Shown: positions 35,915-63,998, numbered from the stretch's first letter. The stretch: DNA of 64,000 nucleotides from Bacilli bacterium (GCA_050953065.1 JBMNLZ010000003.1:64001-128000); one strand, 5' to 3'. A program made the numbers and translations. The notes: generated by a model from the sequence alone, not told the origin.

Positions 35915-35951
35915 AAAAACACTTCCTACCGATTGGTAGAAAGTGTTTTTT
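35915..35951 (-). terminator. Rho-independent terminator closing the large surface-protein operon
   Basis: aaaaacacttcctacc-gatt-ggtagaaagtgttttt. Confidence 0.75.
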
Positions 35952-36006
35952 AAATAATAATATTAGAAAAAGTCAATATTACTATCAATTAAAATTTGAA
36001 AAAACT

Positions 36007-39000
36007 TTAGTACGAAGCTGTAACTGCTATAGACTTGCCTATGTTAATTGATGCACCAGTATTTACAGCAGTCAGTGTAGCACTTCCAGAGCCTCCAGAA
36101 GTTACACTTATACCAACCTCATAGCTACCATTACTTACAATTTGAATTGGTGGATCACCACTTGTAGTCAAACTTGCCCAAGCTGGATTTGCATAAATTC
36201 CCATATTCATAGCAGTACCTGCCAAATTATAAACTTGAATTCTAAACATTCTAGCACTAGAACTTGTTCTTCTAGCTGAATATTCACCTGTTATTGTTGC
36301 TTGACTAGTAGATGCAACAGTATCTTGAGCACCAGAAATATAATTCCACAATGCTATTCTAAATAACACTTCAGGTACAACATGCATACAAATTCTAACC
36401 TTTATACCATCCCATCCAGCTTGATTTTTAAATGCTATTGTAATCCAACTCCAACCAGCACCAGTAGGATCTAATATATTAGCACTTCCACCTCTTAATA
36501 CAATTGCACTTGTATTAGATGATGTAATATTTGTATTATTTCCAAATGTAAATCCACTAAACGGAATAGTAGAAACTTGAAGTGAAATACGGTCAACGTT
36601 ATGTAAATTTCTAATTTTCCATTTTGTAGCAGCATTAGCTGTATATGTAATCAAAGGAGCTGCTGGTGCATTAATTCTTTGGTCATATAAATAACTTACA
36701 AAATTAGTTGCATTTGTACTGCCGTTATGGAATGTAGTACCTAAAGGTGCTTTCATTTTAGCATAGAATGTTTTATTACCAGTTTGACCTGCTGGAATAG
36801 AAGTTACTGCAGAGCCAGAGAAAGCATATGTATCATAATTTGGAGCATCTGCATACCATCCTTCATGATCCCAAGTAGAGCCACTCCATGCAGCAGGTAG
36901 TGAAGTCGCACTTGCTACAGTATATGTACTTGGAGTAAGAGCTCTTGTATTATATGCAAATAGTTGAGTTGAAGAATTATAAGCATCAACAGAACGATAA
37001 GTTATACTATAAGTTATAACAGTCCATTGAGCATAAAGTGTAGTATCAGCTGAAACATTATAAACAGTTGTTTCTGTATAAGTTGTACCACTTCCGTTTA
37101 CAGCAGTATTCCAGCCATTAAATGTATAACCTGTTCTAGATGTGGTTGCTAAAGTACCTACTGCAGCACCAACTGTTACTTGTTTACTAGTTGGGCTAGG
37201 AGTTGAACCACCATTACCATCAAAATACAGTGTATAAGCATCGCCAACCCAAGAAGCATATAAAGTAATACTTTCAAATTTATCCCAATTTCTAGCACTT
37301 GTCATCGAAGCAGTATAGTATTGCGTTCCGCTACCATTTGTACCTGTCCAATAGCCATTAAATGTCCACCCTGTTCTTGTAGGAGCAGTTGCTGCTGGCA
37401 TTGGTTGGCCATAAGTAGCTTGAACGCTATCGCTTCCACCAGTTCCACTTTGTTTATTAAAAGTAATATTAAATTGAGTCGCAAAAGTTCCATTATAAGT
37501 AGAGACTTGAGTCCATAATGCATAATATTTTTCAGCAGGAACAACTCCAGCAGCAACGCTAGTTATAGCACCACCTGTAAAGCTTGGGTTATTATACCAA
37601 CCACCAAACAAATATCCTTCTCTATATGGTGCTCTTAATGGAGCCACAGTTCCATCGCGATAAGATGTAATTTGATAAGTTACAGTTTGTTGAGCTCTTG
37701 ACGATCCACTTACGTAATATCTTAAAGTTGGAGTAGGAATTGAACCACGCAATTGTGTAAACAAAGTATCATTAAGTGTTCCAGTTACTCCTTGAGTTCC
37801 ATAGAAATATCCATCTAAAATAAAGCCAAATCCAGCAATTCCATATCCATCTGTTGAGTTCATCGATTCAATCACAGGATATTGATTTCTCTTTAATTGA
37901 TATAATTCATAAACAAGTTCAAATACATTAGCATATTTACTCTTATAAGGTTCTGTTCCTAAAAATCCACCTGATACGTTTTTACCTGAAATCGAACTCC
38001 AGAAGAATTGCGAATATCCATCATTACTAAAAAATGATACAGAACCCAAACCGCCATATCTATCAGAGGTATGGTTATACCACGCTCTTGGGTCAACAGC
38101 ATCGGCACTAAAAGCTGCCCAAGTTGTTTTTCTAAATTCAGCTCTTACCAAACTAGAACTTAACAAGTTATTATCATATAAATAATGATAAAAATCTTGC
38201 ATAAACATTTCTGGTAAATTCGATACGCTATCTATTCCATTGGCAGGATTGCTTACAGTACCTGTTGTCCAAGTCCATGAACCACCATTTAATTCATATG
38301 TAAGATTGAAATTCCAGATAGCATAAAGCGTTATATTATTAGCAACTTGATATACAGTTGTAGCTGTATATGCTTGACCACTTCCGTTTGCAGCAGTATT
38401 CCATTCTACAAAAGTAGCTCTTGTTCTACTAGTAGTTGCTAAAGCACCTACTTGAGCATCATAAGTTACTTGTTTTGTTGCAGGATTTGGATCTGTTGCA
38501 TCTGAACAGTTTTTATTGAAAGTAATAGTATATACATTAGGAGTCCATTTTGACCAATATTGAATATCTTTTGTTACTGTAATATTCATAGCATCTTGAG
38601 CTTTATTAATCAAACCTGGTTCAGTATACCAGCCACCAAAAGAATAACCCGTTTTTGTATAACCTGGAGTTATAACAGCGTTATATTGATAAATGCCAAA
38701 AACCTTATTTTCTCCTTGATCTGTTAAACTTACTAAGTATAGATCTTGTACCCAAACAGCGTAAAGCGTATAAACTCCACCTACTCCTGCTGCTTCAATC
38801 TCTAATAATTCTTCATTAGTAATCACTTGCTTATCAAAGAATTTAATATATAATCCATTTGAATTAAGTGACCAACCTCTAAATGTATGTCCTGCTTTTG
38901 TTAGAGTATTAGTTGACAAAGCAACAGTTGATAAATATGTTTGGTTTTGATTAGGCATTGAGCCTGCCCCACCATTACTATTAAAAGCAATTGAATATGT

Positions 39001-42000
39001 AGTTACTCCCCATTGAGCATAAAGTACTATACTTGCTCCATGAGTTAATGAAATTGGATTAGCTGAACTTATTAAAGCTTGATTACTATAACTTGTACCA
39101 GTGCCATTGGCTTGAGTATTCCAGCCTAAGAATGAATACCCAGCTTTTACAAAAGTATTTGCACATAAATTTTCACTAACATTATATACAAAATCTTGAT
39201 ACGCTGGATTCATTATTCCAGATCCACCATTGGCATCAAAAACTACAGTATATTCTATTGGTATCCAGACAGCTTTTAATAAAGCATCGTGCGGTAAATA
39301 TGCTTGATAAGTATAAGGTACTCCACATTCAAATGTTTCATTAGCTGAGATTTCATATTCCCAACCAACTAATCTATATCCTGTTTTCTTAATTGTTGCA
39401 TCAACCATTCTAACAGTTGATAATTCACCAAAATAGACATCATCTGTTGCATCGGCTGTTACTCCTTCAATAGAGTAACTTATTGTATCTTTAAACCATG
39501 CAACTAAAACCGTACTTTCATTAATTGCAGTTGAAAAATTAAATGCTGCACCTGCTTTTGTCACTGAAGATCCAACATATAAGTATCCATTATGTGAAGG
39601 AATTAAGTTTCCTCCACTGTATTTATTCCAACCCATAAATGTCCAACCTGACATTGTTGGATTTGCTGGTGCAGTAACTGTAGCACCTTGATTTACAACT
39701 GCAACACTATTAACCTTTAATACTAAATCGCTTGTTATGCTATTAGTTGTATTTCCATCTGCCCAATACATAAAGATTACTTGACGTTTATTAGTAGTCC
39801 AAGTACCACTTGAAGCCGTATATACAATATCTAAAACTCTTTCTCCACCTATTACAAACTCACTAATTGGATTCCCTGCAACACTCCAAGGCCTAACTCC
39901 TTCTTCTATTATTACAGAGTTATCAATAGTTAAAATAGAACCATTTGTTCCAGCTAAAATATATGCTTTTGAACCTTTTAGACTACCAGTTGAAACAGTA
40001 AAATTAGCATTTATTGTTAAATAATAAATTCCTAAGTCTATATTTATATTTTGATTGATTGTTTTAGCTGAATCTAGACTTGTATTCATTAAAAGTGTCA
40101 CAGTAGACCCAACAGAAAGTAAAGCTCTATCAATTGCTGATTCTATACTATTATAATAAATTTCTGACTTATCTGGTAAAGTTACTTTAGCAACACCAGG
40201 TGTCCACTTAGCATAAATCGTAGCAGTTGTTCCAGCACCAACTAATGTTAGTAATTCTGCTCTAGTAATGCTTGCACCAAGTGCTTGAGTAAGTGCCTCA
40301 TCTTTATACCAACCAGCAAAAATGTATCCATAAGCTGCTCCACCAACCATATACGTTCCACGCTTGAAAGGAGTTGGTAACGTATAAGGAAATGATGTTG
40401 TATCAGTTTGTGCAAAAGATTTATTAGCAATTCTATATGGATATGATGAGAAAAAGATATAATCTAAACCATTAGAAACATTTGAGTAATCCATCGTAAT
40501 AGGCCATGTTGTACGTTGTCTATCCGCTAAAAATGCCCAAATTTCATTCTTAACAATATTATGTCCATCACCTGTTTGACCTAAAGTACCATCAAGTAAA
40601 TTTTCAAAATATGTGTTATCTAATCCAGCAGCTTCTCTAATGGACATAATATATTCTATCATCCATAACCAACTAGCTCTTATTGTATTATCATCGAAAA
40701 AAGCAGTTGGTGTACAATTAAATACATCCATTCTTGCAATTAACGCAGTAGCTTCATTATAACCTAAATCACCACTAATCTTCAAATCAACATTACTTGC
40801 AAGAGCTTCTCTTGAGCCACCATCATCATTTCTATGAATATTATAATATTCAGTATAATCAGTTAAAAATTCATTAACCATATCTGTTTTAGTTTCATAA
40901 CTATCTATGACACCTGCATCAAGATTAAATTGTAATAAATAATCCACTGATATCATTTTTTCTTCTAAAACTAAATCTTTTGTTACGGCTTGGTTTCTAA
41001 CAAATTCATTTTCACCTTCATACCAACCATCAAAAATAACATACGCAGTAGTTTCAGGCTCAAAATCATATACACCACCTACACCATTATCTGCAAAGAA
41101 ACTTGCAATAGTACCGTATTTTAATACTTTCAAAACCTTTCCGCCTGTTGTATCAAACTTAACCCAATAATAAGGTTTTGAAATAGAATCATTTGTAAAG
41201 GTAGTTGAACCTGTAATTGAGAATTTATTAATTGTATTTACTTCAGTAACCACATTATTAAATACTTTAATATATTCTGTAATACTACTTACACTACTAA
41301 TTAAAACATCCATATCCATTGATATTTCTAGATAAGTATTATTTGTATTTGCTAGAGTTGGTACTTTTATTTGATTAGTTGATGCAGTACTTACTCCATC
41401 AAAATAAATATCAATCATATATTTTGATGGACTTGCTACTACTGAAACATTTGTTAGATCAATATAACCAACTGTTCCTAAGTTAACCACCTGAACAGTA
41501 CTTACCTTATTAGTTCCATCAGCAGCTTCTGCTGTAATAGTTCCTACAACACTTTTTTCAGAAATAAAGATTCTTGATTTATTGCCTTCTGAAGGCTGTT
41601 TTGAAATAAGAATACTAGCAGCCGTAGATGCACCTTTTTTCGTTTTTAAATCATAAAAACTCAAGCCACTACTTGAATTTAATCTTTGTTCGTCAGCCTC
41701 ATCATATGAAACATTTGCTTTTATATTTCCAGTAACTGATAATTGATCAGCACTAGTATCACCAAATAAAGCAACACTTAGGTTAGGAGCATTTATATTC
41801 AAATCATTTGAAACAACAGTTTTCCCCCCATCTCCCATATCAATATAAATTCTACCAGTAGCATTTGTTGTTATATTTAAATTAACAACATTAAGATTAC
41901 TTCCACTTGGAATATGTAAAAAAACACTATTACTAGCAACTGGTGCTTGGTAACTAAGGTTTCCTGAAATTGTTAAATTAAAACCATTTAAGTCTAAAGT

Positions 42001-43092
42001 TATTCCCTTATAAACTGTTAAATTTTGACTAGTTGAAATATTAGCTGTTAATCTAATAGTATGTTTATTACTAGCTCCCGTTGTTTCATTTAAAGCAGCT
42101 AATAATTCAGTCTCATTACTAACAAGCCAAATTGGACCTTCTTTTTCATTAACTGTATAAACTTGACCAAAAGTAATATGTGATCTTGGCTTTAAATATA
42201 AACTATTACTTGAACCAACATTTTGAGAAGTAACAGTTCCAGTAATAATATTATATTCAAATCTCCAAAATGTAAATCCACCATCTTTATAACCAGGACC
42301 TGTTATTCCATCTAAAAAACACCCTCTATTAGGATTTGCTAAATCACCAATTAAAAGATTTGCTAAATCAGATAAGTCACCTGAAGAAACTAATGCTTCT
42401 GTTCCAAATCTAACTTCCTCATTTAAATATAAGTCAAGTGGAGTTGCCAAATCATCGTATGCAATAACTTCCCACTCATTATTAATATATTGATACATCA
42501 CATAATAACTAGGAGATTTATATAAATAAATTACTCCAGCTGAACCAGTCCCACTTGGTTTTGAAGTTGTATAAGTTTTTGTTATAGGACTTCCCCAACC
42601 AGAGGAAGTTTTTTTATATAAATCATTATTAACAGTATTAACATAATAATTAGAAATTACTCCTAACTCAGAACTAGGAGCACCACTTCCTTTTAAAATC
42701 CTATCCATTCTTAAATTATCTAAAGTATATATCTCATAAATACTATAAGAAAATCTATTTAAATAAAAATCATAACTTAAATCATATGTATCAAAAGATA
42801 ACATTCCATATAAACTAGCAACACCTTTATTTTCCATTGAAAGATATCTAGTACAAGTTTCATCATATTTTTCAATGTAGTCTACAGTATTTTTAGGAAT
42901 TACTTTTCCTGTTTCATCATACCACTGAACATCCATTTGGAAATCATTAACAACTTTAATAGATGCTCCTTGCTCTTTTGAATCATATTTAATTGAATAC
43001 CAAGCATGAGTATTTGAAAGGTAAGCGAATGCTATAAATAACGTCAAAACAACAATCACAATTGATTGTATTCTATAAACTCTCGTTTTCAT
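36007..43092 (-). CDS. Giant secreted adhesin-like protein (~2360 aa) with SipW-type signal peptide and InlB B-repeats
   Basis: N-terminal hydrophobic stretch ending NTHA-WY; ENKG TasA-like motif; many GY.F.GW repeats; no C-terminal anchor; ATG at 43092 after GGGGGTG RBS. Confidence 0.8.
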   Translation of the reverse strand: MKTRVYRIQSIVIVVLTLFIAFAYLSNTHAWYSIKYDSKEQGASIKVVNDFQMDVQWYDETGKVIPKNTVDYIEKYDETCTRYLSMENKGVASLYGMLSFDTYDLSYDFYLNRFSYSIYEIYTLDNLRMDRILKGSGAPSSELGVISNYYVNTVNNDLYKKTSSGWGSPITKTYTTSKPSGTGSAGVIYLYKSPSYYVMYQYINNEWEVIAYDDLATPLDLYLNEEVRFGTEALVSSGDLSDLANLLIGDLANPNRGCFLDGITGPGYKDGGFTFWRFEYNIITGTVTSQNVGSSNSLYLKPRSHITFGQVYTVNEKEGPIWLVSNETELLAALNETTGASNKHTIRLTANISTSQNLTVYKGITLDLNGFNLTISGNLSYQAPVASNSVFLHIPSGSNLNVVNLNITTNATGRIYIDMGDGGKTVVSNDLNINAPNLSVALFGDTSADQLSVTGNIKANVSYDEADEQRLNSSSGLSFYDLKTKKGASTAASILISKQPSEGNKSRIFISEKSVVGTITAEAADGTNKVSTVQVVNLGTVGYIDLTNVSVVASPSKYMIDIYFDGVSTASTNQIKVPTLANTNNTYLEISMDMDVLISSVSSITEYIKVFNNVVTEVNTINKFSITGSTTFTNDSISKPYYWVKFDTTGGKVLKVLKYGTIASFFADNGVGGVYDFEPETTAYVIFDGWYEGENEFVRNQAVTKDLVLEEKMISVDYLLQFNLDAGVIDSYETKTDMVNEFLTDYTEYYNIHRNDDGGSREALASNVDLKISGDLGYNEATALIARMDVFNCTPTAFFDDNTIRASWLWMIEYIMSIREAAGLDNTYFENLLDGTLGQTGDGHNIVKNEIWAFLADRQRTTWPITMDYSNVSNGLDYIFFSSYPYRIANKSFAQTDTTSFPYTLPTPFKRGTYMVGGAAYGYIFAGWYKDEALTQALGASITRAELLTLVGAGTTATIYAKWTPGVAKVTLPDKSEIYYNSIESAIDRALLSVGSTVTLLMNTSLDSAKTINQNINIDLGIYYLTINANFTVSTGSLKGSKAYILAGTNGSILTIDNSVIIEEGVRPWSVAGNPISEFVIGGERVLDIVYTASSGTWTTNKRQVIFMYWADGNTTNSITSDLVLKVNSVAVVNQGATVTAPANPTMSGWTFMGWNKYSGGNLIPSHNGYLYVGSSVTKAGAAFNFSTAINESTVLVAWFKDTISYSIEGVTADATDDVYFGELSTVRMVDATIKKTGYRLVGWEYEISANETFECGVPYTYQAYLPHDALLKAVWIPIEYTVVFDANGGSGIMNPAYQDFVYNVSENLCANTFVKAGYSFLGWNTQANGTGTSYSNQALISSANPISLTHGASIVLYAQWGVTTYSIAFNSNGGAGSMPNQNQTYLSTVALSTNTLTKAGHTFRGWSLNSNGLYIKFFDKQVITNEELLEIEAAGVGGVYTLYAVWVQDLYLVSLTDQGENKVFGIYQYNAVITPGYTKTGYSFGGWYTEPGLINKAQDAMNITVTKDIQYWSKWTPNVYTITFNKNCSDATDPNPATKQVTYDAQVGALATTSRTRATFVEWNTAANGSGQAYTATTVYQVANNITLYAIWNFNLTYELNGGSWTWTTGTVSNPANGIDSVSNLPEMFMQDFYHYLYDNNLLSSSLVRAEFRKTTWAAFSADAVDPRAWYNHTSDRYGGLGSVSFFSNDGYSQFFWSSISGKNVSGGFLGTEPYKSKYANVFELVYELYQLKRNQYPVIESMNSTDGYGIAGFGFILDGYFYGTQGVTGTLNDTLFTQLRGSIPTPTLRYYVSGSSRAQQTVTYQITSYRDGTVAPLRAPYREGYLFGGWYNNPSFTGGAITSVAAGVVPAEKYYALWTQVSTYNGTFATQFNITFNKQSGTGGSDSVQATYGQPMPAATAPTRTGWTFNGYWTGTNGSGTQYYTASMTSARNWDKFESITLYASWVGDAYTLYFDGNGGSTPSPTSKQVTVGAAVGTLATTSRTGYTFNGWNTAVNGSGTTYTETTVYNVSADTTLYAQWTVITYSITYRSVDAYNSSTQLFAYNTRALTPSTYTVASATSLPAAWSGSTWDHEGWYADAPNYDTYAFSGSAVTSIPAGQTGNKTFYAKMKAPLGTTFHNGSTNATNFVSYLYDQRINAPAAPLITYTANAATKWKIRNLHNVDRISLQVSTIPFSGFTFGNNTNITSSNTSAIVLRGGSANILDPTGAGWSWITIAFKNQAGWDGIKVRICMHVVPEVLFRIALWNYISGAQDTVASTSQATITGEYSARRTSSSARMFRIQVYNLAGTAMNMGIYANPAWASLTTSGDPPIQIVSNGSYEVGISVTSGGSGSATLTAVNTGASINIGKSIAVTASY
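39233..39520. repeat. Near-identical 288-bp block, copy 1 (copy 2 at 46805-47092)
   Basis: Visual alignment shows only 2 mismatches at offset 7572. Confidence 0.85.
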
Positions 43093-43143
43093 AGCATTCA
43101 CCCCCTTTTATTTAAATTTTTAATTAAAAATTACAAACTATCT

Positions 43144-46100
43144 TTAAGCAACACTCATAGGCAAAAATAACCAATAACTATATCTAGCAACTATTCCAGT
43201 ATAATCACTTGAAAAACCAGAGTAGTTTCCATACCCTCTCAAAAACGCCCAAGACTCTCTATTAGCAGATGCTCCAGGATCCGCTGTACTACCATTCATA
43301 ATATTTAATAAACTCGTTACTGATTGATTATTTTTAACTTTAACAGCCATCCAATAATTTAATATCCAGCGCCATTTAGGACCATATGTTGAATGATTTA
43401 AAAATTTTGATAAATACGCATTAGCATTTCCAAGACGTCCAATATAAGCAGTTGAAGCATTGTAAGGTGGAGTTCCATCTGGAACATGCGAAAGCAAGGT
43501 TAACTCTGCCAAAGAAGCACCGTTAACAGCATTATAAAACAGCCTATAATCATTAACAAAATAATAAACTATACCATAAGTAGTATCATATGTATACCCA
43601 TCTCCATCAACACCTGCTCCATATCTTCTTTTAAGATTAGATACTGGATAAAGTGTAACAGTTGCACCATTAACAGTAGTGATATTGGCAGTAGATTCTT
43701 GAGAAAAATCATTTCCTGTTAGTGTTGGATCAAAATTCCAATATGAGAACAAAGCATAATTGTTACTAGTATCAGGATAATCAACTCTCATTAGGGCTTG
43801 CCCATCATCATATGTCCTATTAAACGTAAATTCTCTATATATATAATAATCTTTTGAAGCATATCCTGTACCGTATGTAGAAGTAAAATCAGCACTTGTA
43901 TAACTACCATATTGATAAGTTATGCCATTTAAAAACGCATGTATATTAAGTCTATAATATGTTTGATTTGGATTAGTAGTTAAATATTGTAAATCAGGAT
44001 AATTTTGTGCAGTTGCAACTTCAATTATATACCTCAACATCCAGCCCCATTTAATATTACCTCTAGAACTATTAAACATAGTAACTATCATAGCTGAATG
44101 AGTATAAGAAGTCGTAAAGAAAGTAGATGGTGTTGTAGGAGGACTAGTTCTACTAGCATAAGTGTTAAAATCATCACAAAAATCTTGAGCCAACAAAGTC
44201 TTATTATAATATACATATCCCGCAGAATTCATTCTTAATTTTAAAGTATAAGTAATTGGAGTCCACTTAGCATAGAAATCTTTATTACCATAATCTAGTG
44301 TTCCTATTGCTGTATAAGGGCTTCCACTAAAGCTTGAGTTATCATACCAACCATCAAAAATATAACCAGTTCTTGTAATATTACTTGATGTAGGTAAAGT
44401 TAATCCTGTAAAGCAAGTATATTCTGTATAAGATCCAGATAACGTACCACCATTTAAAGTAAGAGTAACAGTATATGTTTTTGGTTTCCATTTAGCATAG
44501 AACGTTTTATCTCCAGTTGTACCAGCAGAAATAGCAGATACTTTAGCACCAGAATGATCAGGTGCATTATACCATCCTTCTAATTCTAGATAATTTGGAT
44601 GATTACTAATTGCTTGATTTACATTTGGTAAAGAGAATGTATCTTCAATTGTGTATGTAGTACGAGTGTAGCCACTTAAAGAACCATTAAGTGATTGATA
44701 TCCAGTTGGATATGAATTATTAGTATAATCAAAATCCCAAGTCAAATTATAATTAATCGGTATCCAATAAGCATATAAAGTTGCAGGTCCAAAAATATTC
44801 CAATTTGTAGCACTGCTTAAATTAGCATTATAATATTTTGTTCCAGCACCACCAGTTTGAGAGTAATATCCAGCAAATGTGTAACCTGTTTTTGTTGGTG
44901 GAGTTGAAGGATTAGGAAGTGGCATCGCCTGACCATATGTTGCTACAACTGAATCAGCACCACCAGTTCCGCCTTGCTTATTAAATGTGATATTTGAATT
45001 CATAGAAAAACTACCACTATAAGTAGAAACATCCCCCCACAATGCATCATATACATCAGCTGGAATTACACCTGCTGGTATAGAACCCACCGCAACTGTA
45101 GTTGATGTAGCAACATCATACCAACCACCAAAAAGATATCCATCTCTAAACGGCTCTTTTAAATACGCAATAGTTCCATCACGATAAGATGTAACTTGAT
45201 AAGGTGTTGTAGAACTATATTTTGTTGAGCCACTTACATAATATCTTGTAGTTGGAGTTGGAATTGTTGAACGCAAATCAGTCCACAAAGTATTATTAGT
45301 TGTACCTGTAAGTCCTTGTGTACCATAGAAATATCCGTCCAAAATGAAACCAAATCCCGCAATTCCATATCCATTTGTTGAATCATGAGATGTAATAGGT
45401 GGGTATATTGGAACAGATGGTGTCGCAGTTTTTAGTTGATATAATTCATAAACTAAATCATATACATTAGAATATTTACTCTTATAAGGTTCAGTTCCAA
45501 AGAATCCTCCAACTGGTTTATAAATATTAAGGTTATTATCAAATGTAAGCGAATTCCAGAAAAATTGTGAATATCCATCATTAGAAAAATATGATACATA
45601 ACCTATATTACCATATCTATCAGATGTCCAGTTATACCACGCTCTTGGGTCATTAGCATCGGCACTAAAAGTTGCCCAAGTTGTTTTTCTAAACTCTGCT
45701 CTTACTAAACTAGAATTTAGCAAAGTTTCATCATATAAATATTTATAAAAGTCTTGCATAAATATTTCTGGTAATGTAGAGGCACTATCAATTCCATTGG
45801 CTGGAGTAACAGTACCAGTTGACCAACTCCATGCACCACCATTTAAACTATAATTAATATTAAAATCCCATATCGCATAAAGTGTTAAATCTCCAGCAAC
45901 TTGATATACAGTTGTAGATGTATAAGTTGTACCACTTCCGTTTGCAGCAGTATTCCATTCAACAAGAGTTGAATTTCTTCTTGTAATTGAAGAACCTGAT
46001 AAAGCTGGTGGTAAAGGACCTACTGCACTATCATATGTTACTATTTTACTTGTAGGAGAAACTAACGCCTCAGATCCATTAGCATTAAAATACAAAGTAT

Positions 46101-55636: not shown

Positions 55637-56869
55637 TTATTTCTCTTGTAATGATTCTCTCTTCTTTTCTAGTTTTTCTTGTTGCTTAATAATCTTTCTA
55701 ATAGTTTCTTGTTTTTCTCTAATTTTCTTTTCAATTTCTAATTCTTTTTCATAACTCTTCAAAACTCTATCAATTGAGGCTAAAACATCTTTTTCATTAA
55801 CCTTTTTAATTCTACCACTTACAAGATTAGTAGAACCTACCTTTTCTAATTCTAAGACATTTTCATCTTCTACATATCTATTAACAAAAGATTTAACAAA
55901 AGTAGGTCTAAGTTTAGTTACTCTATCGTTTTGTTTGACAACTAAATCTTTATCAACATATTCTTTGAATAGCAAGAAGTTAGAAAACATTGAATAACCC
56001 AATTGATCGACAAACTTTTGATCTACCTTACCTAATGATTCATTTACCTCAACTGAAAAACCAATCTTATCGTATGTTTCAATAAACTGCCATAATTTTA
56101 AAGCTTTCTTAAAGTCAGGGTTTTTTAAGATAACATTCGTTCTAACAATAGGAGGTCTAACCATCGCAGAACCTGCCATTTGTTTTGAAAATGGACTGTG
56201 ATATAATCCGTCAATTATCTTAGCAAGTCTTGCAACACGCTGAATCCCGCTCATACCTTGAGGATTTTGTTGCATTAAATCATCAAGAGTTGATTCTGAT
56301 TCAATTTTAAGCTCATATCTAAATCTCTTTCCTTCAACTTTAAAGTTTGATTTTATTGAAACTTCATTTAAATCACCTTCAGCTAAAGCTCCCTTAATAA
56401 TCTGCAGACGTTTTTCAATAAATATTCTTAAGTTAAAGATTAAAGTATAGATAAATCTGTTTTCATAAATCTCATAACTTTCTTCTTTATAAACATTTAA
56501 GATTCGATCAGGAATAACCTCATCCCCTCTAACCTCACTAATAAGGTTAGTGTTTTGAGCAAGATGTCTAATAGATTCTTGTGTAACTTTCTTGGCTAAA
56601 GAAACTGGGATAATATCTTCTTCTTGAACGATAAACTTTCTTGGATTTCTTACAATCGTATCAAGCGAAGGAGTCGCTTCTTCAATTGCTTCTAACCAGT
56701 CTTCATCAACATTTTTAATTTTCATTCTAGTATAGAGATTCATTTCATTTTCGCCATTTGCGACCATCTCTATAAAGTCTTTATAAAAATTATCGTTACC
56801 TATAGTAGCCATTACATTTTTAACTGTATTTAGATAACTTTTATCTGGAGTTTTATCATCTTTTGCCAT
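55637..56869 (-). CDS. DUF2357-like McrB partner protein with no recognisable nuclease domain and a C-terminal coiled coil
   Basis: YEIYENRF and PPIVRTNVILKNPDFKKALKLW blocks typical of DUF2357; directly downstream of McrB-like gene; K/E-rich tail. Confidence 0.65.
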   Translation of the reverse strand: MAKDDKTPDKSYLNTVKNVMATIGNDNFYKDFIEMVANGENEMNLYTRMKIKNVDEDWLEAIEEATPSLDTIVRNPRKFIVQEEDIIPVSLAKKVTQESIRHLAQNTNLISEVRGDEVIPDRILNVYKEESYEIYENRFIYTLIFNLRIFIEKRLQIIKGALAEGDLNEVSIKSNFKVEGKRFRYELKIESESTLDDLMQQNPQGMSGIQRVARLAKIIDGLYHSPFSKQMAGSAMVRPPIVRTNVILKNPDFKKALKLWQFIETYDKIGFSVEVNESLGKVDQKFVDQLGYSMFSNFLLFKEYVDKDLVVKQNDRVTKLRPTFVKSFVNRYVEDENVLELEKVGSTNLVSGRIKKVNEKDVLASIDRVLKSYEKELEIEKKIREKQETIRKIIKQQEKLEKKRESLQEK

Positions 56870-56897
56870 AACGGCCACCTTTCTTTTTTCTTAATTA

Positions 56898-58415
56898 TTA
56901 GAATAGTTTCTTTAATCTCTTTAGATAATCTTTACATTCTTCCATGTTTTGAGAACCAAATAATTTATCCAAGTAAGCAATTAAACCATCAATTTCATCT
57001 CTGATATAAGATAAGTTCAAACTTTCAAACTTTCTTAAGATTTTGTTTGCTAAAACATAATCAAGTCCATCTAATTCAGTTCCACCTGTAGCAATATATG
57101 TTGGAATAAATTCAGTTAATTGTTTTAAAATACGGTTACCAAACGCTAACCTAAAGTGTTTAATAACATAGTCATCTAGTAATTCTAATTTATCTAAAAC
57201 TTCTTGACTTACCTTATGATTTTCCTTAGCTTCTTTATATAAATTCTCTAAATGATCAAATCCAATTTTTACTGGATCTGTATCTGGTGCTGGGAAAAAC
57301 TTACCTTTTTGGTTAATATTAATTGGCATACCACGGTCATAAACTTTATCCGAAATCGCGAAAGTCGAGTCGTCCATGTTAACAGTACCAACATAGTACA
57401 TATTTTGAGGAAGTTTAAATCTACCCTTTACAATATGTTTAGGGTCATTTGGCCAACCACTGGCAACTAAGTCAACAATCCATAAGTCCCTAATCGGCAT
57501 TTCTAGGATTGATAACATCTCAGCGAAGTAGTACTCAACTCTGGCGATGTTCATTTCATCCAGGATAATAACTGAAACTTCGTTAGTATAAGTTGCTTCA
57601 TATAAAGCTTTTAAAACTTCTGTTTCATTAAATCTTTTTGTAAATTCGTTAAAGTAACCAAATAACTCAGTTCTATCACGCCATGATGGTTGAACTGAAG
57701 CTAGTGTTACTGGGTTTTGTAAGAACTTACCGAAGGCATACGGTAAGGAAGTCTTACCAGTACCAGAAATACCTTGTAAGATAACAAGTCTAGCACTTGA
57801 AAAAGCTGAAATAAATAATCTAATTGTTTTGATATCATAGAATAACTTTAATCTTGAACAAGCAAAGTTTCTAAATCTTTCACATAGATCATCTAATCTA
57901 ATAGTATTATCATATTCAGGTGCTACATAGTTTTCATATTTTTGGTCAATTTCAGTTAACTTATAGAAACGACTATTACTAGTATCAACTTTCTTCTCTC
58001 CTACTGCTCCCTCTTCTGCTCCAGTTCCATCCGCAGCAAAAGCAGGGCCTCCAATTTGAGAAACCTTTAAAGCTAGAATTCTATCTTTTTCTTGGTTAAC
58101 TCTCATAACCTCTCTTTTTAGAGAAGTTATTTCATCAATCAAGTCCTCAGAGCTTACCTTACTTCTTCTAATTCTGATATATCTTCTTAAGAAATATAAG
58201 AATAACCAAAGAATCGCTCCAACAACAGCAATAACGCACAGTAAAAGTAGGATACCTACTACCCATTGCCACCAAACAAATCCTCCTGAATGTCCTTCAA
58301 ATACTTTATAGTATTCAAAGACGTTTAGCATTTCATAAATGCTAATCCAAATGCCTGAGAATCCCTTCCAAAATACTAGTAGAAAATCTTTCAAAAAATT
58401 AATTATAGTTTCCAT
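56898..58415 (-). CDS. Membrane-anchored McrB-family AAA+ NTPase
   Basis: N-terminal TM (WWQWVVGILLLLCVIAVVGAILWLFLYFL) plus coiled coil; Walker A GISGTGKT, VQPSW.D, Walker B ILDEMN, ARVEYYF, McrB signature GTVNMDDS, DR. Confidence 0.82.
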   Translation of the reverse strand: METIINFLKDFLLVFWKGFSGIWISIYEMLNVFEYYKVFEGHSGGFVWWQWVVGILLLLCVIAVVGAILWLFLYFLRRYIRIRRSKVSSEDLIDEITSLKREVMRVNQEKDRILALKVSQIGGPAFAADGTGAEEGAVGEKKVDTSNSRFYKLTEIDQKYENYVAPEYDNTIRLDDLCERFRNFACSRLKLFYDIKTIRLFISAFSSARLVILQGISGTGKTSLPYAFGKFLQNPVTLASVQPSWRDRTELFGYFNEFTKRFNETEVLKALYEATYTNEVSVIILDEMNIARVEYYFAEMLSILEMPIRDLWIVDLVASGWPNDPKHIVKGRFKLPQNMYYVGTVNMDDSTFAISDKVYDRGMPININQKGKFFPAPDTDPVKIGFDHLENLYKEAKENHKVSQEVLDKLELLDDYVIKHFRLAFGNRILKQLTEFIPTYIATGGTELDGLDYVLANKILRKFESLNLSYIRDEIDGLIAYLDKLFGSQNMEECKDYLKRLKKLF

Positions 58416-58459: not shown

Positions 58460-58534
58460 AATTTTAAACTAATTATTAATAAAATAATTAGTTTAAAATT
58501 ATCGTCCGTCTTTTTTAAGAAGACGATAATTTTT
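58460..58534. promoter_or_regulatory. Tandem overlapping hairpins between sipW #1 and the McrB-like gene
   Basis: aattttaaactaattatt/aataattagtttaaaatt (58460-58500) and aaaattatcgtc...gacgataatttt (58495-58533). Confidence 0.65.
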
Positions 58535-58537
58535 AGT

Positions 58538-59338
58538 TTATTCTTTCTTTTCTTCTTTTGAACTTTCTTTTTCTTCCTCTTTAGCTTTTTCTTTAGCCGC
58601 TAATTCTTCTTTTTGTTTCTTTAAGAATTCTTGAATTGCTAGCTCTTTTAATTCATCCGATAACTCACCGGTTTCAGCTGCTTTAGCAAGTTCAGTCTTT
58701 CTCTTTAAATCAACAAAGAATTTAATAAAAGCAAATAAGTTCCAAACAAACAAACCAAGCATTGGTAAGAAGACAGCAACTAAGAAGACAGTTGGATCTT
58801 TAATCCAATCTAGGACTTTTCCAAGCCCACCAATTTTTCCGCGATATACCGCCACAATATCATTTGTTAAAAAGGGATCGTCTTCTAAAAACTCATTATC
58901 ACCTTTTGTAGTACACCAAACTAAAGGTTTCCCAGTCTCAGAATCAATTAAATGAGGATCTTCACGCATTTCAACAAGTCTATGAATTCGTAAATACTTA
59001 TCTCTTCCTGCTCCAACCCAAATAGCTACAATATCACCTGGTGTATCAGAGTCTTTATAACCAGCTACTAACTCTTTTGATTCATCATATGCACCCATAA
59101 TAGTTAAGTCACCAACTTTAATAGTCGGTTCCATTGAATCAGTTTGAATAGCCAAAAATGATACATCAATCACAGGAAGTCTACTTACTCCTCCTGTTTT
59201 ATTACTAATAGAAGCAATAATAACAAAAAAAGCAAAAACTATTAATATTATTTCTAAAATATTTATAATATTAGAAATAATTTCTTTTTTTCCTAATTTC
59301 TTTTTTTCTTTTGTTTGAGTATTAGTTTCTTTTTCCAC
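58538..59338 (-). CDS. sipW: Signal peptidase I, SipW type, copy 1
   Basis: N-terminal TM, IQTDSMEPTIKVGD, RIHRL, TKGDN..D, C-terminal TM and charged tail. Confidence 0.82.
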   Translation of the reverse strand: MEKETNTQTKEKKKLGKKEIISNIINILEIILIVFAFFVIIASISNKTGGVSRLPVIDVSFLAIQTDSMEPTIKVGDLTIMGAYDESKELVAGYKDSDTPGDIVAIWVGAGRDKYLRIHRLVEMREDPHLIDSETGKPLVWCTTKGDNEFLEDDPFLTNDIVAVYRGKIGGLGKVLDWIKDPTVFLVAVFLPMLGLFVWNLFAFIKFFVDLKRKTELAKAAETGELSDELKELAIQEFLKKQKEELAAKEKAKEEEKESSKEEKKE

Positions 59339-59347
59339 TATTGTCTC

Positions 59348-60202
59348 CTATCCTAATTCTTCTTCACTTGCATTTCTTACCGCAAAAACTAAGTTTATCT
59401 CTACGTTTTGACCTAAATATGCATCCACACAATTTTCATCAGTTCCTTCAAACCAAACAACTAAAGTTACAACATCTTTTCCTTCTTCATCAAATTTACT
59501 AGCATCTATAAGAAAAAGTGGTGTAGCCATCGCTGCATATCCAGCTTTTATTAATAAAACTTCATTTTCCCCCTCTGGATTTTCTTTAATTCTTCCACTT
59601 GTAGCACCACCTATTGGATTATCAAAGTCTGCACTAGTAACAAAAGTCAATTCATCACTTATAGCATTTGGAGCCCAAATACCAATTAACTTATTATCTT
59701 TTATAAAAGCAACTCTTGTAGCTCTTGATATTTCTTGGTCTGCAGTTAAATTAGCATCCCCAGTTAAATAAACTATCTTATCAGTATCCTCTGGTTCATC
59801 TTCATCCATATTGTACGCAGAAAACCAAAAACTAATTACTAAAGCATCTCCATAACCATTAACTTTTTTATAATTGGTTGGACTTGCTTCATTTATTGCA
59901 TAGAAACTAAGTCCATTCCCTGACTGATCGCCCATTAAATGATCAATTACACTTGTAGAGTAAAATGGGTCAAATTCATCATCAAAGAATATTTCTCTAC
60001 GATAATTTTCAAAAATCCTTGGATAAGTTTCGCTATCAGCAGTATTAGCATAAATTCTTAATTTTCCCGAAGTACTTGCTTGAATAAGAGAGCTTTGATA
60101 AGAAGCACGCTTTGAAAGAGATATCCAAGCATAAGCGGCAGATGTTGCTACTAAAAGCGAAACTATGAGCATTAAAAATAATAGCACAAATCTTCTTCTC
60201 AT
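59348..60202 (-). CDS. TasA/camelysin-like secreted protein with SipW-cognate signal peptide
   Basis: MRRRFVLL..SAAYA-WIS; DQSGNG, ATRVAF, VWFEGTD.NC motifs. Confidence 0.7.
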   Translation of the reverse strand: MRRRFVLLFLMLIVSLLVATSAAYAWISLSKRASYQSSLIQASTSGKLRIYANTADSETYPRIFENYRREIFFDDEFDPFYSTSVIDHLMGDQSGNGLSFYAINEASPTNYKKVNGYGDALVISFWFSAYNMDEDEPEDTDKIVYLTGDANLTADQEISRATRVAFIKDNKLIGIWAPNAISDELTFVTSADFDNPIGGATSGRIKENPEGENEVLLIKAGYAAMATPLFLIDASKFDEEGKDVVTLVVWFEGTDENCVDAYLGQNVEINLVFAVRNASEEELG

Positions 60203-60236
60203 AAGCTTTCCTTTCCTTTAAAATTTATTTATTTCC

Positions 60237-61418
60237 TTAGTCCCATCTAGCATAAAGATTGAAAGTATTATTCGGATTAGCAGTGCCAAGTCTTAATTCC
60301 CATTTATTAGTTCCACCATCATTATAGATTGGTAAAACATCTGTATAAAAAGCATCTCTATACCAACCAGCAAAAGTAAAACCAGCTTTTGTTGGAGCAG
60401 TTAACAAATAGGCATCTGAATTGGCACCTTTATTAAACTCAGTAACATCTATAATTTTAGGGTTTGAATTTACTCCACCATTTAAATTATAAATTGGTGA
60501 ATATTTATTTGCAGGCATTCTTCCTGAAAATATCATACTAATATTAACACTTTGACCTATTAAAGCATCTGTTGTATTAGGGTCACTTCCCTCAAACCAA
60601 ATTACAACCTTTACCAAAGGACCTGTGATTTGAGATGCATCAACTTGAGCAATTGATGTCCCTGCATAAATTCTTCTAACAACAGTAGCACTATATGAAG
60701 CAGGGTTTATATAATAATTATTAGGTATAGACTCACTATAAACAGTGCCTTCAAAATCTTGGAAATTTGTAGTCCCAAAACTAGTACTTGGAATAATTGA
60801 CCCACTCAAATTACCATCCCCTGGCCTACCATTACCATCATTATAATCTGCATTAGTAACAAACCTATTATCAGCAGTATTAGAATATACTCCAAAAACA
60901 TTGTCATTGACATCTAAAAACGCGATACGAACAGAATATGCTAAATCTTTTAAATGTGGTCCGGCAGCTGCATTTTCTACCACGATACTTTCTAAATAAA
61001 TATCTCTCATATCAGTTTCAGTACTACCAGTATATGATGTAAAATACAAATCATAAGCTAATGCAACTCCTGTACCACTTATAGCACCATATTTATAATT
61101 ACTACTATCAGGTACTGCTTCATAAAACCGGCTACCATTTCCTGATTGGTCTTTCATAATATGATTTGCATAGCCTGGATTATAAAAATCATCTTCAGGA
61201 TCACTAAAATCAATATAAGTTGTATAGTTAGAAAATATATTAGGAATATCATTTTGATTATGTGTCCATACTTTTAAATAACCTTTTGTTTCAGCTTTAA
61301 CGTTAACACCTCTTACTTCTGCTTCTTTTGAAGCTGTAAACCAAGCATAACCAGCTAAAGTAACTAAAAATACAGAAACTAGTAATAAAAATATTAGTAA
61401 AATTAAATTTTTTCTCAT
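60237..61418 (-). CDS. TasA/camelysin-like secreted protein with SipW-cognate signal and one C-terminal B-repeat
   Basis: LAGYA-WFTAS; MKDQSGNG, SVRIAF, IWFEGSDPN; APTKAGFTFAGWY. Confidence 0.72.
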   Translation of the reverse strand: MRKNLILLIFLLLVSVFLVTLAGYAWFTASKEAEVRGVNVKAETKGYLKVWTHNQNDIPNIFSNYTTYIDFSDPEDDFYNPGYANHIMKDQSGNGSRFYEAVPDSSNYKYGAISGTGVALAYDLYFTSYTGSTETDMRDIYLESIVVENAAAGPHLKDLAYSVRIAFLDVNDNVFGVYSNTADNRFVTNADYNDGNGRPGDGNLSGSIIPSTSFGTTNFQDFEGTVYSESIPNNYYINPASYSATVVRRIYAGTSIAQVDASQITGPLVKVVIWFEGSDPNTTDALIGQSVNISMIFSGRMPANKYSPIYNLNGGVNSNPKIIDVTEFNKGANSDAYLLTAPTKAGFTFAGWYRDAFYTDVLPIYNDGGTNKWELRLGTANPNNTFNLYARWD

Positions 61419-61442
61419 ATTTTTTCTCCATTACCATAAAAC

Positions 61443-61586
61443 AATTTTTAATCAACTTTTATATTTTAAAGTTGATTAAAAATTATTCTCTATTCTTATC
61501 TTAAGAATAGAAGATAATTTAAAATTGATGGAACTTAAGAAGGAGATACTTGGAAATGATGATATCTCCTTCTTTATTTTAAGTTC
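61443..61586. promoter_or_regulatory. Three consecutive hairpins in intergenic region
   Basis: aatttttaatcaacttt/aaagttgattaaaaatt; ctattctta/taagaatag; gaaggagata/tatctccttc enclosed by gaacttaa/ttaagttc. Confidence 0.65.
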
Positions 61587-61624
61587 TTTTATTTTTTAAA
61601 ATCTATAAACTGTTTTAGATATTA

Positions 61625-62845
61625 TTAAGACCATTTTGCATAAATCTTAATAGTTCTATCAGCAGCAAAGTCGCTTGGTCTTAGATACCACGTAGTTCCA
61701 GCATCATTTGTCATGATTGCATCACCTTCATTCATTCCAGGATCATCAAACCAACCACCAAATGTAAATCCAGGTTTAGTTGGAACGCCTATTGTACGCA
61801 AGTCTGTATATGATTGTCCGCCAATAGTTTCTGATTCATTAAATTGAGCTGCTGTAAATGTTGGTGCGTTTGCTGCGTTGTTAGCACCACCATTAGTATA
61901 ATAAGTAATAGCATATGTGTCAGCAGGCATTCTAGATTGGAATATCATATCAATTGATACTTGATGGCTTAATCTTGAGTCATCAGTATTTGGATCTGAT
62001 CCTTCAATCCATACAACTACTTTAATAGTTGGGTTAAGAGCCTTAATAACAGATGAATCGATTTGACAAATACTAGTTCCTGAAGAAGCAGTACCAGTAG
62101 CTGAAGGAATAATTCTACGAACTACTGAAGCAGCAGGTCCAGCTGGTTTAACATACTTAAGTTCAGATGTAGATTCAGTAATTGATCCCGCTTCAAAATC
62201 TGTATAGTTAGTAGTATCAAAAGCTGTACTTGAAACAACACTGCCGTCTAAGTCAGCTGCAGCTGTAGAAACTGGATCACCAGCTTGACTTTGAAGTGCG
62301 TATTTTGGTTGCCCTGAAGAATGCGCCCAAATACCATAAATATTATTATTGCTGTCTAGGAAACCAATTCTTACAGATGGTAATAAAGTACCAGAAGCGT
62401 TTGTAACAGTTAAACTACTTAAGAAAATATCTCTCATTTGGCTAGTAGCATTACCTGTATAAGCACTGAAATATAGGTTGTAAACTAAAGCTACACCAAA
62501 ACCAGATGCTACACCATAGTTTGCGCTTGCCCCAGCAGCTACAGCTTCAACAAATTGAGAACCATTTCCAGATTGGTCTTTCATGGCATAATCTGTATAA
62601 GCTATATTGTAGAATGGGTCAGTAGGCTCAGCAAAATTAATTGCAGTAGTATAATTTTCATAATCATTAGTAACGCCATTTGCGTTTTCTGTCCAAACTT
62701 TTAATACACCTTGAGTTTCGGCTTTGATTTGTGTTCCTTCAATTTCAGCTTGAGCTGAAGCAGTAAACCATGCATAACCGGCAGCAGTAACAACTAAAGC
62801 CGACAATAACAACATCATAAATAACATTAAAAATCTTTTTTTCAT
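61625..62845 (-). CDS. TasA/camelysin-like secreted protein with SipW-cognate signal (candidate major subunit) and one C-terminal B-repeat
   Basis: AAGYA-WFTAS; MKDQSGNG, SVRIGF, VWIEGSDPN; PTKPGFTFGGWF; AAGGAG RBS. Confidence 0.72.
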   Translation of the reverse strand: MKKRFLMLFMMLLLSALVVTAAGYAWFTASAQAEIEGTQIKAETQGVLKVWTENANGVTNDYENYTTAINFAEPTDPFYNIAYTDYAMKDQSGNGSQFVEAVAAGASANYGVASGFGVALVYNLYFSAYTGNATSQMRDIFLSSLTVTNASGTLLPSVRIGFLDSNNNIYGIWAHSSGQPKYALQSQAGDPVSTAAADLDGSVVSSTAFDTTNYTDFEAGSITESTSELKYVKPAGPAASVVRRIIPSATGTASSGTSICQIDSSVIKALNPTIKVVVWIEGSDPNTDDSRLSHQVSIDMIFQSRMPADTYAITYYTNGGANNAANAPTFTAAQFNESETIGGQSYTDLRTIGVPTKPGFTFGGWFDDPGMNEGDAIMTNDAGTTWYLRPSDFAADRTIKIYAKWS

Positions 62846-62974
62846 AATTGTTTGTTTCTTTCTCCTTTTTTCATATTTTTTTAAAAATTTATCCTTTTAA
62901 TATGTTGATGAATTCCATTTTTTAAATTTCTAACAAATTAGTAGAAAGATTTTAAAAATCTTCAAGAATTAGAT

Positions 62975-63754
62975 TTATCCTAAATCTTCTTCTTCTAAAC
63001 TAATAATATTAAAAACCATTTCCAATTTTAAAGTTCCATCAATACGTTCATCAACACATTCGGGATCAGTTCCTTCAAGCCATAAGACTATAACATATCT
63101 ATCGGCTTGTCCTACCTCTAAAGAATTTCTCACTTCTTTAGTTACTAAAGTATCACTTAAGAAAACTAGTGCATCATCTTCTTCTTCAATGCCATAATTT
63201 AAATCTTCATAAGCAATCTTTTCAGGAACGGTAGTAGTTCCCTCTCTTGCTTTCGCAAAAACTTTACGACTCGTCTCATTATTTTCGCTATCAAATGTTA
63301 ATAGCATTACCCTCACAGCGCTGTTTAAATCTTTTGTAACAACGGGAAAAGAAATCATATACTCATAATCTAGTACCTCAATACCAGAATTCTTAATGTA
63401 AAATGAATAGGCAACATAGTTAAAGCCATTGCTTGACCCTTCCATGTTATGATATTCTCTATATTTAACATCTTTATAAGAACAATCCGTTAATTTTAAA
63501 ATTCCATCTCCACTAATCGCAGATTTTGCTTTTTCAAAACTTGACTCTTCTGATAAGACAATTGATTTACCAACCATCTTAGTATCATCAACTTTAACTG
63601 TTATCATTCCATCAGTTGTCATTCCTACCATTAAAATAATATATAAAAGTGCTAACAATAATGGAATTGCAATAATAACAGCAATAGCAACTTTCTTAGC
63701 GAAACTTCGCCTAAACCTACCTCTGACTCTTTTACTAATACTTACATTAGTCAT
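62975..63754 (-). CDS. Membrane-anchored member of the same pilin-like family
   Basis: Arg-rich N-terminus plus TM with no A-W(F) cleavage motif; IKNSG, SAVRVM, LWLEGTDPEC; ATG at 63754 after AGGAGGTG RBS. Confidence 0.68.
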   Translation of the reverse strand: MTNVSISKRVRGRFRRSFAKKVAIAVIIAIPLLLALLYIILMVGMTTDGMITVKVDDTKMVGKSIVLSEESSFEKAKSAISGDGILKLTDCSYKDVKYREYHNMEGSSNGFNYVAYSFYIKNSGIEVLDYEYMISFPVVTKDLNSAVRVMLLTFDSENNETSRKVFAKAREGTTTVPEKIAYEDLNYGIEEEDDALVFLSDTLVTKEVRNSLEVGQADRYVIVLWLEGTDPECVDERIDGTLKLEMVFNIISLEEEDLG

Positions 63755-63998
63755 CCGAAGTTTCACCTCCTATCTTTCTTGTAATCTTGAAAGTACGAGA
63801 TGCTAACTTAACATGCGGTTTACATATGAAGTTTCCTTCAAGTCTAGTCATCCCTAACTCTTGGAAGAACATAGCTTCTTTTCTATTATTAACATGAGTA
63901 ATAATTAATCTTCCTCTACAAGATCTAATATATTCATCAAGTTTTTTTAACATGTTTTGTTTTCTTTCATCCTCAAATAAACCAATAAAGTAGTTATG
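63747..63998 (-). CDS. C-terminal end of a degenerate EAL-domain protein (5' part outside window)
   Basis: Frame open to window edge; LIITHVNNRKEAMFFQELGMTRLEGNFICKP aligns by eye with EAL tail (AEGVET.EQ...L..LG....QGY...KP). Confidence 0.6.
   Translation of the reverse strand, partial: HNYFIGLFEDERKQNMLKKLDEYIRSCRGRLIITHVNNRKEAMFFQELGMTRLEGNFICKPHVKLASRTFKITRKIGGETSDD

Follow-up and report, generated by a model that had tools for sequence, protein, structure and literature searches.

A 64,000-nucleotide (nt) stretch of a Bacilli bacterium genome (GCA_050953065.1, JBMNLZ010000003.1:64001-128000; here the window, which is positions 64001-128000 of contig C3) carries on its minus strand a large operon encoding two SipW-type signal peptidases, a family of small exported proteins, three much larger exported proteins and a GTPase of the kind otherwise found in the McrBC restriction system. 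We think it probable, with appreciable room for doubt, that this locus encodes a Sec- and SipW-dependent machine for surface-fibre assembly and adhesin display, built around a nuclease-less, membrane-anchored McrBC-type GTPase, and that it is of the type named CoCoPALM. An earlier note on this DNA had proposed a donor-strand pilus and called the system undescribed. The latter point has to be withdrawn, since the architecture is already named in Bell et al. (eLife 2024; PMC11090510), whose main-text passages treat an extensive clade of NxD McrB GTPases that carry a fused FtsB-like transmembrane (TM) and coiled-coil domain, with a McrC (DUF2357) homologue containing a coiled coil and an association with a gene of the signal peptidase family. 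That main text devotes one paragraph to CoCoPALM and defers its analysis to a later paper (PMC11090510); a literature search on the name finds only the eLife article and its preprint. The window locus is a genuine, complete example of this named, experimentally unstudied system.

Conservation of the gene set was assessed both in relatives of the host and, at species level, starting from the GTPase alone. At E<=1e-20 the GTPase finds a match in 23 of 40 relatives (18 of 24 in one family, f1, and five of 16 in another, f2), and a same-genus genome (86% complete) has a GTPase match of 35% identity only. Ten regions from relatives were examined. The eight from f1 have, as far as each contig reaches, the order TM paralogue, two to four subunits, SipW, GTPase, McrC-like protein, SipW and further subunit-like or large open reading frames (ORFs), and the two from f2 have a shorter variant of it; together with two subunit-anchored loci, the f1 regions make up ten syntenic loci at family level, all of them with the close GTPase type (41-54% identical). 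The species-level search returned at least 576 confirmed stretches, of which the best 80 were kept, 38 of them flanked by 5 kb or more on each side. SipW and a DUF2357 McrC-like gene are present in all 38 of these well-flanked loci and a subunit or TM paralogue in 37, all on one strand. This shows that the subunits, the TM paralogue, the two peptidases, the GTPase and the McrC-like protein travel together in a fixed order in hundreds of Bacillota genomes. The earlier note had said beforehand that a gene set scattered among relatives would count against its proposal; the set has proved to be retained.

Within the window the operon comprises 12 ORFs, all co-oriented on the minus strand, as are all operon coordinates below, between 36007 and 63998, with intergenic gaps of -32 to +206 nt in the ORF listing, as the note had described. 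In transcription order they encode 83 (an open-ended fragment), 263, 406, 393, 284, 266, 505, 413, 185, 1467, 2495 and 2364 amino acids (aa). The closing terminator seen earlier is confirmed as an intrinsic hairpin at 35911-35950, with a 16-bp stem and a U-run in the RNA fold (dG -21.5 kcal/mol, z -8.5); its stability was equalled in none of 200 shuffles, and a pattern scan flags the same palindrome. The genes downstream of it, lipoate ligase and GcvT, are housekeeping genes. The idea of a single operon of about 28 kb holds for the gene set and fails for its containment in the window. The 83-aa fragment (63747-64000) is the 3' end of the gene for a 488-aa HD-GYP and EAL protein that extends past the window edge, and upstream of that gene lie two further subunit paralogues (288 and 300 aa; leaders VFA-WF and AFA-WF). 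The full HD-GYP/EAL gene and the two extra subunit genes occupy 747-4471 of C3:127001-145000; HD/EAL genes are found upstream in 11 of the 80 GTPase-anchored loci. Beyond the extra subunit genes there is a co-oriented polysaccharide cluster (4776-17999 of C3:127001-145000), whose content, judged by eye from translations, includes epimerases, a UDP-sugar dehydrogenase, RmlA/B-like proteins, an aminotransferase, glycosyltransferases, a flippase and an O-antigen-ligase-like protein.

Between the two peptidase genes lie those for the GTPase and its partner. The 505-aa protein (56898-58415) has a hydrophobic N-terminus, a coiled coil, a GTGKT Walker A motif, a DEMN Walker B motif and the signature N346-x-D348. 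Its AAA+ core finds E. coli McrB (9e-9) and Thermococcus McrB as best PDB sequence matches and, across 28 homologues, the Walker A motif, DEMN, N346 and D348 are invariant, with D349 nearly so. These motifs identify it as a predicted NxD-type McrB-family GTPase with a membrane anchor. The hydrophobic segment, at about residues 43-80, lies ahead of the AAA core and is followed by the coiled coil, a heptad-like stretch read by eye from the translation; no match to the FtsB/DivIC Pfam entries was obtained at E<=0.1. No protein of the locus is better conserved than the GTPase (56-63% identity across classes). It has at least 8000 homologues, those listed being mostly 56-63% identical and annotated as 'hypothetical' or 'AAA family ATPase', and the ESM Atlas returned only proteins of its own kind. 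The 413-aa partner (55637-56878) matches PF09823 (DUF2357, the McrC N-domain) at 3.6e-9 and has a C-terminal coiled coil and no TM segment. No nuclease was detected in it or in its homologues (370-1246 aa), either with Pfam or with a 14-homologue profile run against the PDB, which produced coiled-coil matches only. Likewise, the hallmarks of McrBC, a DNA-binding N-domain and a PD-(D/E)xK nuclease, are absent from the Pfam domains of GTPase and partner. The AAA+ motor of the earlier note therefore stands as regards its AAA+ core and is corrected in identity to a McrB-family GTPase, given its best PDB match and NxD signature; the McrC-like partner had gone unrecognised. Elsewhere, the genome contains a second, different pair, of a McrB-like (915-aa ORF, 35% core identity) and a DUF2357-like (530 aa) protein, on the minus strand at 8101-12418 of C3:457000-476999; SipW and subunit genes were queried for next to this pair and not found.

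The two peptidases differ in length and in their match to TIGR02228, the family of archaeal and endoplasmic reticulum (ER)-type signal peptidase I. The short form (185 aa; 55054-55611) has a TM segment at each end and passes the cut-off of 51.85 bits with a score of 70.1; the long form (266 aa; 58538-59338), with a charged cytoplasmic tail, scores 38.9 bits and falls below it. Their description as Ser-His SipW-type enzymes is supported by the catalytic residues: 14 peptidases of both forms from six loci show no variation at Ser50, Met51, His93 or Gly111 and almost none at Asp75 or Asp112. Most long-form peptidases have the charged tail after the second TM helix. Both window enzymes fall below the cut-off of the Bacillus SipW equivalog model (NF046067, 190 bits), and they are therefore members of the family that are not orthologues of Bacillus SipW. 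A LepB-type signal peptidase I (129 bits) is encoded elsewhere in the genome, so that the two locus peptidases are extra, dedicated enzymes. There is also a third, weak TIGR02228-like match of 35.9 bits in a 154-aa ORF (C1:284818-285066).

Their likely substrates can be recognized by a common hydrophobic leader ending [A/S/G]-W-[F/Y/I], found in the translations of six exported proteins with the endings given in the note: the giants of 2364 aa (36007-43101; NTHA-WY) and 2495 aa (43144-50631; VAYS-WF), the 1467-aa protein (50682-55085; NVFG-WF) and the small proteins of 284 aa (59348-60202; AAYA-WI), 393 aa (60237-61418; AGYA-WF) and 406 aa (61625-62845; AGYA-WF). Each has one hydrophobic segment, at the N-terminus. 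A lipobox and a C-terminal LPXTG motif are absent from all six, the sole LPx[TSA][GAN] match being internal, at residue 812 of the 2495-aa protein; the substrates thus have, as had been claimed, no C-terminal TM segment, LPXTG tail or lipobox. A rule requiring a hydrophobic run and then [AGS]-W-[FYIL] near the N-terminus, applied to ORFs of at least 100 aa across the whole 1.55-Mb genome, is passed by only 10 of 1376 ORFs. Seven of these belong to the locus, five inside the window and two just upstream; the other three are a 674-aa candidate on another contig and two multi-TM false positives. The 2364-aa giant narrowly fails the polarity filter of the rule, its motif being present by eye. Enrichment of the leader motif at the locus is far above chance. 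The 674-aa ORF (C2:470595-472619, minus strand; leader ESFG-WFT) is a possible extra substrate of the locus peptidases. Two large surface proteins encoded outside the operon on the minus strand, one of 1223 aa with eight Big_2 domains and a NAGPA domain (20427-24098) and one of 1178 aa with 11 Flg_new repeats (24290-27826), both fail the rule.

The motif recurs in the 80 related loci: of 225 subunit-type ORFs, 195 have [AGSC]-W after a hydrophobic run. At P1 they carry Ala in 153 cases and Ser in 39, at P2' Phe occurs in 157, and TYAWFT and TFAWFS are the commonest contexts. Among TM-type paralogues of these loci, only one of 30 has the A-W motif. The cleavage site of TasA is given in PMC10269814 as GGGTWA|AF, with Trp at P2 and Phe at P2', cut by an ER-type SipW. 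The family consensus T-[F/Y]-A|W-F parallels the TasA T-W-A|A-F in the same register, and because of this alignment we infer that cleavage occurs between the Ala and the Trp. The profile for SipW-cognate signals that the earlier note had suggested as a check, TIGR04088, gave no match to the window proteins (none of nine at E<=0.1); it is matched by three of 101 subunit-family members at E<=0.01.

The 284-, 393- and 406-aa proteins and the TM protein (263 aa; 62975-63766) form one paralogous family, in which the TM protein is the divergent member. It has a basic cytoplasmic N-tail, a single uncleaved TM helix and a subunit-like ectodomain, and matches the subunit-family (A3) profile at 7e-27. 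The 393- and 406-aa proteins each end in one additional repeat, of the Flg_new type in the former and Flg_new-like in the latter. The small subunits are not covered by Pfam or NCBIfam. An exhaustive profile search collected 536 representatives of the family at E<=1e-3, and an alignment of 101 sequences shows A25, W26, G97, R163, W250, E252, G253, D255 and F273 to be nearly invariant. A stray family member, a 402-aa ORF that also contains Big_2, lies at 9204-10409 of C3:477000-496999, adjoining a 1041-aa Big_2/NAGPA protein (11524-14646 of the same region) and with no peptidase or GTPase context.

The 284-aa subunit was modelled with AlphaFold2 (AF2). [quoted passage not shown] The model was compared with 48,161 PDB representative chains using VIA-align, a structural scan independent of Foldseek. 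The TasA fibre (8aur) ranks first (Z 6.2, root mean square deviation 3.9 over 138 residues), and the Pyrobaculum bundling pilus AbpA (7ueg), Pyrodictium cannulae (9h8b), the Sulfolobus thread (7pnb) and the Natrinema Tafi pilus (9p0a) follow at ranks 4, 5, 12 and 19, with Z of 4.0-4.8 and several chaperone-usher pilins between them. The fold of the modelled subunit is probably TasA-like.

The largest proteins are connected to this family in a more limited way. The giants have only the leader and about the first 70 mature residues in common with it: hhalign of their N-termini to the subunit profile aligned only the leader, and about the first 100 residues of the 2495-aa protein align to that profile. 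The remainder consists of Flg_new (List_Bact_rpt) repeats, eight in each of the two largest proteins, and unannotated regions. The 1467-aa protein is without Pfam domains and has its C-terminal region in common with both giants; the ESM Atlas gives for it sub-threshold leads (0.75-0.87), to be taken as leads only, to Flg_new, 'TasA family' and 'SipW-cognate' clusters. We propose that the 2364- and 2495-aa giants are tip or decorating adhesins, and that the TM paralogue is a putatively uncleaved family member acting as membrane anchor or terminator. Of the shaft, base and tip roles assigned in the earlier note, those of the small proteins and the TM paralogue gain from their membership of a single family and from the uncleaved TM helix; the giants match the family only in the leader and the adjoining 70 or so residues.

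These observations can be combined into a model. The substrates would be exported by Sec and remain tethered through their leader until SipW cuts Ala|Trp. The freed N-terminal strand would then insert into the β-sandwich of the next, still tethered subunit, in a TasA-like donor-strand complementation; with the acceptor still tethered, the fibre would grow from its base. The giant Flg_new proteins, with a leader and N-terminal strand and without the subunit fold, could only donate and would therefore be found at the tip. The TM paralogue, with the fold and without a cleavage site, could only accept, and would therefore end the fibre and anchor it in the membrane. The membrane would be the only possible anchor, because neither a penicillin-binding protein (PBP) transpeptidase nor a sortase was found when both were searched for in the host genome (94% complete; 1.55 Mb in three contigs, low GC). 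The host looks wall-less on this gene content, in agreement with the Mollicutes-like host that had been surmised. In the cytoplasm, a GTPase hexamer with its McrC-like activator would be held at the membrane by the N-terminal anchor of the GTPase, might contact the charged tail of the long SipW, and would gate or power cleavage, hand-over or subunit delivery; the coiled coils and the charged SipW tail are what suggest such a complex. The HD-GYP/EAL protein and the exopolysaccharide genes upstream would link control of the system to matrix formation. Taken to its full extent, that is, as a distinct class of pilus assembly in which a GTP-driven, McrBC-derived hexamer controls SipW cleavage and TasA-like donor-strand fibres grow from the base with a giant adhesin first and the TM paralogue last, the model is tentative, and we would sooner expect some part of it to be wrong.

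Several observations weigh against the fibre interpretation. PF12389 (TasA/CalY, Peptidase_M73), another check proposed beforehand, matches none of the four window subunits at E<=0.1 and touches just one of the 101 family members, at E 0.0042; membership of the subunits in the TasA/CalY family is not established. Sequence profiles of the subunits run against the PDB did not find TasA; their top rows, at E>0.1, contained viral proteins and the helix of an archaeal pilin. Foldseek of the model against the PDB gave no match at E<=1e-3 and the Z of 6.2 for 8aur is below the typical best chance score of 7-8 quoted for VIA-align, so that the fold assignment rests on which chains rank top, where filament subunits with strand complementation are concentrated, and not on the score; the structural comparison with TasA and AbpA has thus gone in favour of the note by rank and against it by significance. 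To our knowledge TasA-type fibres need no nucleoside triphosphatase (NTPase), and the model leaves the need for a GTPase unexplained. The coupling of the GTPase to cleavage is pure inference and is the weakest link in the scheme. Finally, many Ruminococcus loci encode large, subunit-like, CBM26-bearing proteins and few small subunits, for which display fits as well as a long shaft. The large proteins in loci of this type combine three starch-binding CBM26 modules with a fused subunit-like domain (8156-11920 of locus L006; 2512-5787 of locus L001), and the cargo seems to be tuned to host substrate.

These fusions would suit a system of surface display, or of secretion into the matrix, that has no polymeric shaft and in which SipW would mature specialised adhesins and binding proteins that are then released into the matrix or docked singly on the TM paralogue, with the GTPase pair regulating export. 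The nearby exopolysaccharide cluster would suit such a system too, and polymerization is only putative. However, most loci keep two to five small paralogues without other domains, the best structural neighbours of the subunit model are filament subunits, and the pairing of cleaved proteins with an uncleaved TM paralogue matches Tafi-type pili; we consider display without a shaft rather unlikely, though it deserves to be taken seriously. A logic like that of type IV pili, with the N-terminal helix kept as fibre core, subunits extracted by the membrane GTPase and SipW processing only the giants, would give the otherwise unexplained NTPase a task. AF2 models residues 2-30 as one confident helix, the family profile has as its best, insignificant PDB match an archaeal flagellin-like pilin, in its N-terminal helix (8fk7, E 0.16), and one of the 101 members touches PF01917. 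Yet a prepilin-peptidase-type site, the peptidase itself, a platform protein and a PilB-type ATPase are all absent from the locus, A25-W26 is nearly invariant in the exact register of the TasA cleavage site and SipW is present in all 38 well-flanked loci, all of which makes this version improbable. We give still less credence to the notion that the GTPase pair is a defence module, a relative of McrBC or CoCoNuT that merely happens to lie inside a surface-protein locus. The ancestry of the GTPase is that of McrB, there is a match at 1.7e-34 between its AAA core and the candidate defence family PDC-M26A, and the genome has the second McrB/DUF2357 pair, but this PADLOC match is confined to the AAA core, no DNA- or RNA-binding domain was detected in the GTPase pair, the GTPase has a fixed position between the two SipW genes and its identity across classes is unlike that of fast-evolving defence genes. 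A defence-island reading was rejected on the constant SipW linkage and the lack of a nuclease.

Returning to the fibre-assembly reading, comparison with known systems helps to define what is new. The locus resembles CoCoPALM in its NxD-clade McrB-like GTPase, in the adjacent DUF2357 partner with a coiled coil and in its signal peptidase genes, of which there are two here. The main-text passages on CoCoPALM contain no description of a subunit family, leader motif, TM anchor paralogue, giant adhesins, second peptidase or HD-GYP/EAL neighbour, although the supplements may tabulate more. McrBC itself (E. coli McrB, 6hz4/6ut6) has the same AAA+ GTPase core, Walker A and B motifs, an asparagine-aspartate signature and a McrC N-domain partner, which according to PMC11090510 plugs the McrB hexamer and stimulates GTP hydrolysis. 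The locus GTPase differs in having NxD in place of NxxD, in its membrane anchor and its place in an export operon, and in having neither the DNA-binding N-domain nor the PD-(D/E)xK nuclease. Literature searches found no paper combining DUF2357 and SipW, and nothing relevant combining TasA-like proteins, Clostridia, signal peptidase and AAA.

On the fibre side, the closest parallels are the tapA-sipW-tasA operon of B. subtilis and its TasA fibres (8aur; described in PMC9674648 and PMC10151520) and the archaeal Tafi/AbpX loci. With the former the locus has in common a dedicated Ser/His SipW, a leader with small P1, aromatic P2 and Phe P2' and a predicted β-sandwich subunit whose model has TasA as best structural match. 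It differs in the Trp at P1', the many paralogues, the TM-helix anchor, the lack of PF12389 membership, the adhesins of 1467-2495 aa, the two peptidases and the GTPase pair, which is not known from TasA systems. An accessory paralogue is a further point in common: in B. subtilis it is TapA, which nucleates or anchors the TasA fibre. Tafi/AbpX loci are described as encoding subunits both major and minor, a predicted tip protein, a single-TM-helix anchor with a jelly-roll domain and a dedicated signal peptidase I, and the neighbourhoods of AbpX often include HD-GYP or cyclic di-GMP genes (in passages of PMC12337348 and bioRxiv 10.64898/2026.01.04.697558). The logic of anchor, subunits, tip and dedicated signal peptidase I is the same here. 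However, those loci have DUF5305 as a peptidase accessory, export of Tafi can go through Tat, archaea and walled bacteria are the hosts, and the word 'ATPase' occurs in neither text (PMC12337348; bioRxiv 10.64898/2026.01.04.697558), whereas the McrBC-type GTPase is a fixed component here. The earlier note had drawn a parallel with Bacteroidota type V pili. The subunits of these pili are membrane-tethered until a protease frees an end competent for strand exchange, and they fall into anchor, shaft and tip classes. They are, however, lipoproteins cut by Arg-specific proteases, with a fold, exchanged strand and envelope different from those of the locus, and no NTPase is known to be involved. In sum, the fibre logic and the McrBC link are already in print, separately; the subunit family, the leader motif, the asymmetry of anchor and tip and the function are not.

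The phylogeny of the window GTPase may not simply follow that of its host. It is 57-63% identical to proteins from Christensenellales and Clostridia and 41-54% to those of its own family. In a quick maximum-likelihood tree it forms a long branch at the base of the Christensenellales/Clostridia clade (Shimodaira-Hasegawa-like approximate likelihood ratio test support 98), apart from 10 of 11 same-family sequences, and forcing it together with its own family is 45.9 log-likelihood units worse (approximately unbiased test, p 0.026). This placement and the test hint that the locus may have been acquired laterally. Four carrier contigs (L004, L014, L065 and L111) are labelled Muribaculaceae, Bacteroidaceae or Bacteroides, although their GTPases fall within Clostridia; mis-binning, and not spread to Bacteroidota, is the probable cause. 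A second locus type also occurs in metagenome-assembled genomes of Bacilli, Mollicutes and Erysipelotrichia (L008, L014, L017-L019, L021, L024-L026), with the TM paralogue, two to four subunit-like genes (360-520 aa), conserved unannotated proteins of about 550 and 1200 aa, sometimes a SipW-like gene and, within the fetched flanks, no close McrB-like gene.

The named source records of GTPase carriers are almost all uncultured Bacillota from gut, rumen and digesters. DNA runs with half or more of the words in a 7.8-kb stretch come from digesters, sludge and bioreactors (nine rows from six studies, excluding two rows possibly from the source sample). Six metatranscriptome runs contain 21-32% of the sampled words of that stretch, these being word matches alone, by which transcription is not shown.

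Every protein of these loci is annotated as hypothetical. In the window the system is found in compact and complete form, in a host with the membrane alone available as anchor, and it raises the question of what role a restriction-enzyme GTPase could have in the assembly of a protein fibre. Should the model be true, the locus would provide the first case of a donor-strand fibre that depends on an NTPase, as well as the first job of the McrBC motor that does not involve nucleic acids. A large share of Christensenellales, Oscillospiraceae/Ruminococcus and wall-less Bacilli would then build adhesive fibres by an unstudied route, and the cargo domains, Flg_new here and CBM26 in Ruminococcus, could decide the substrate to which they attach.

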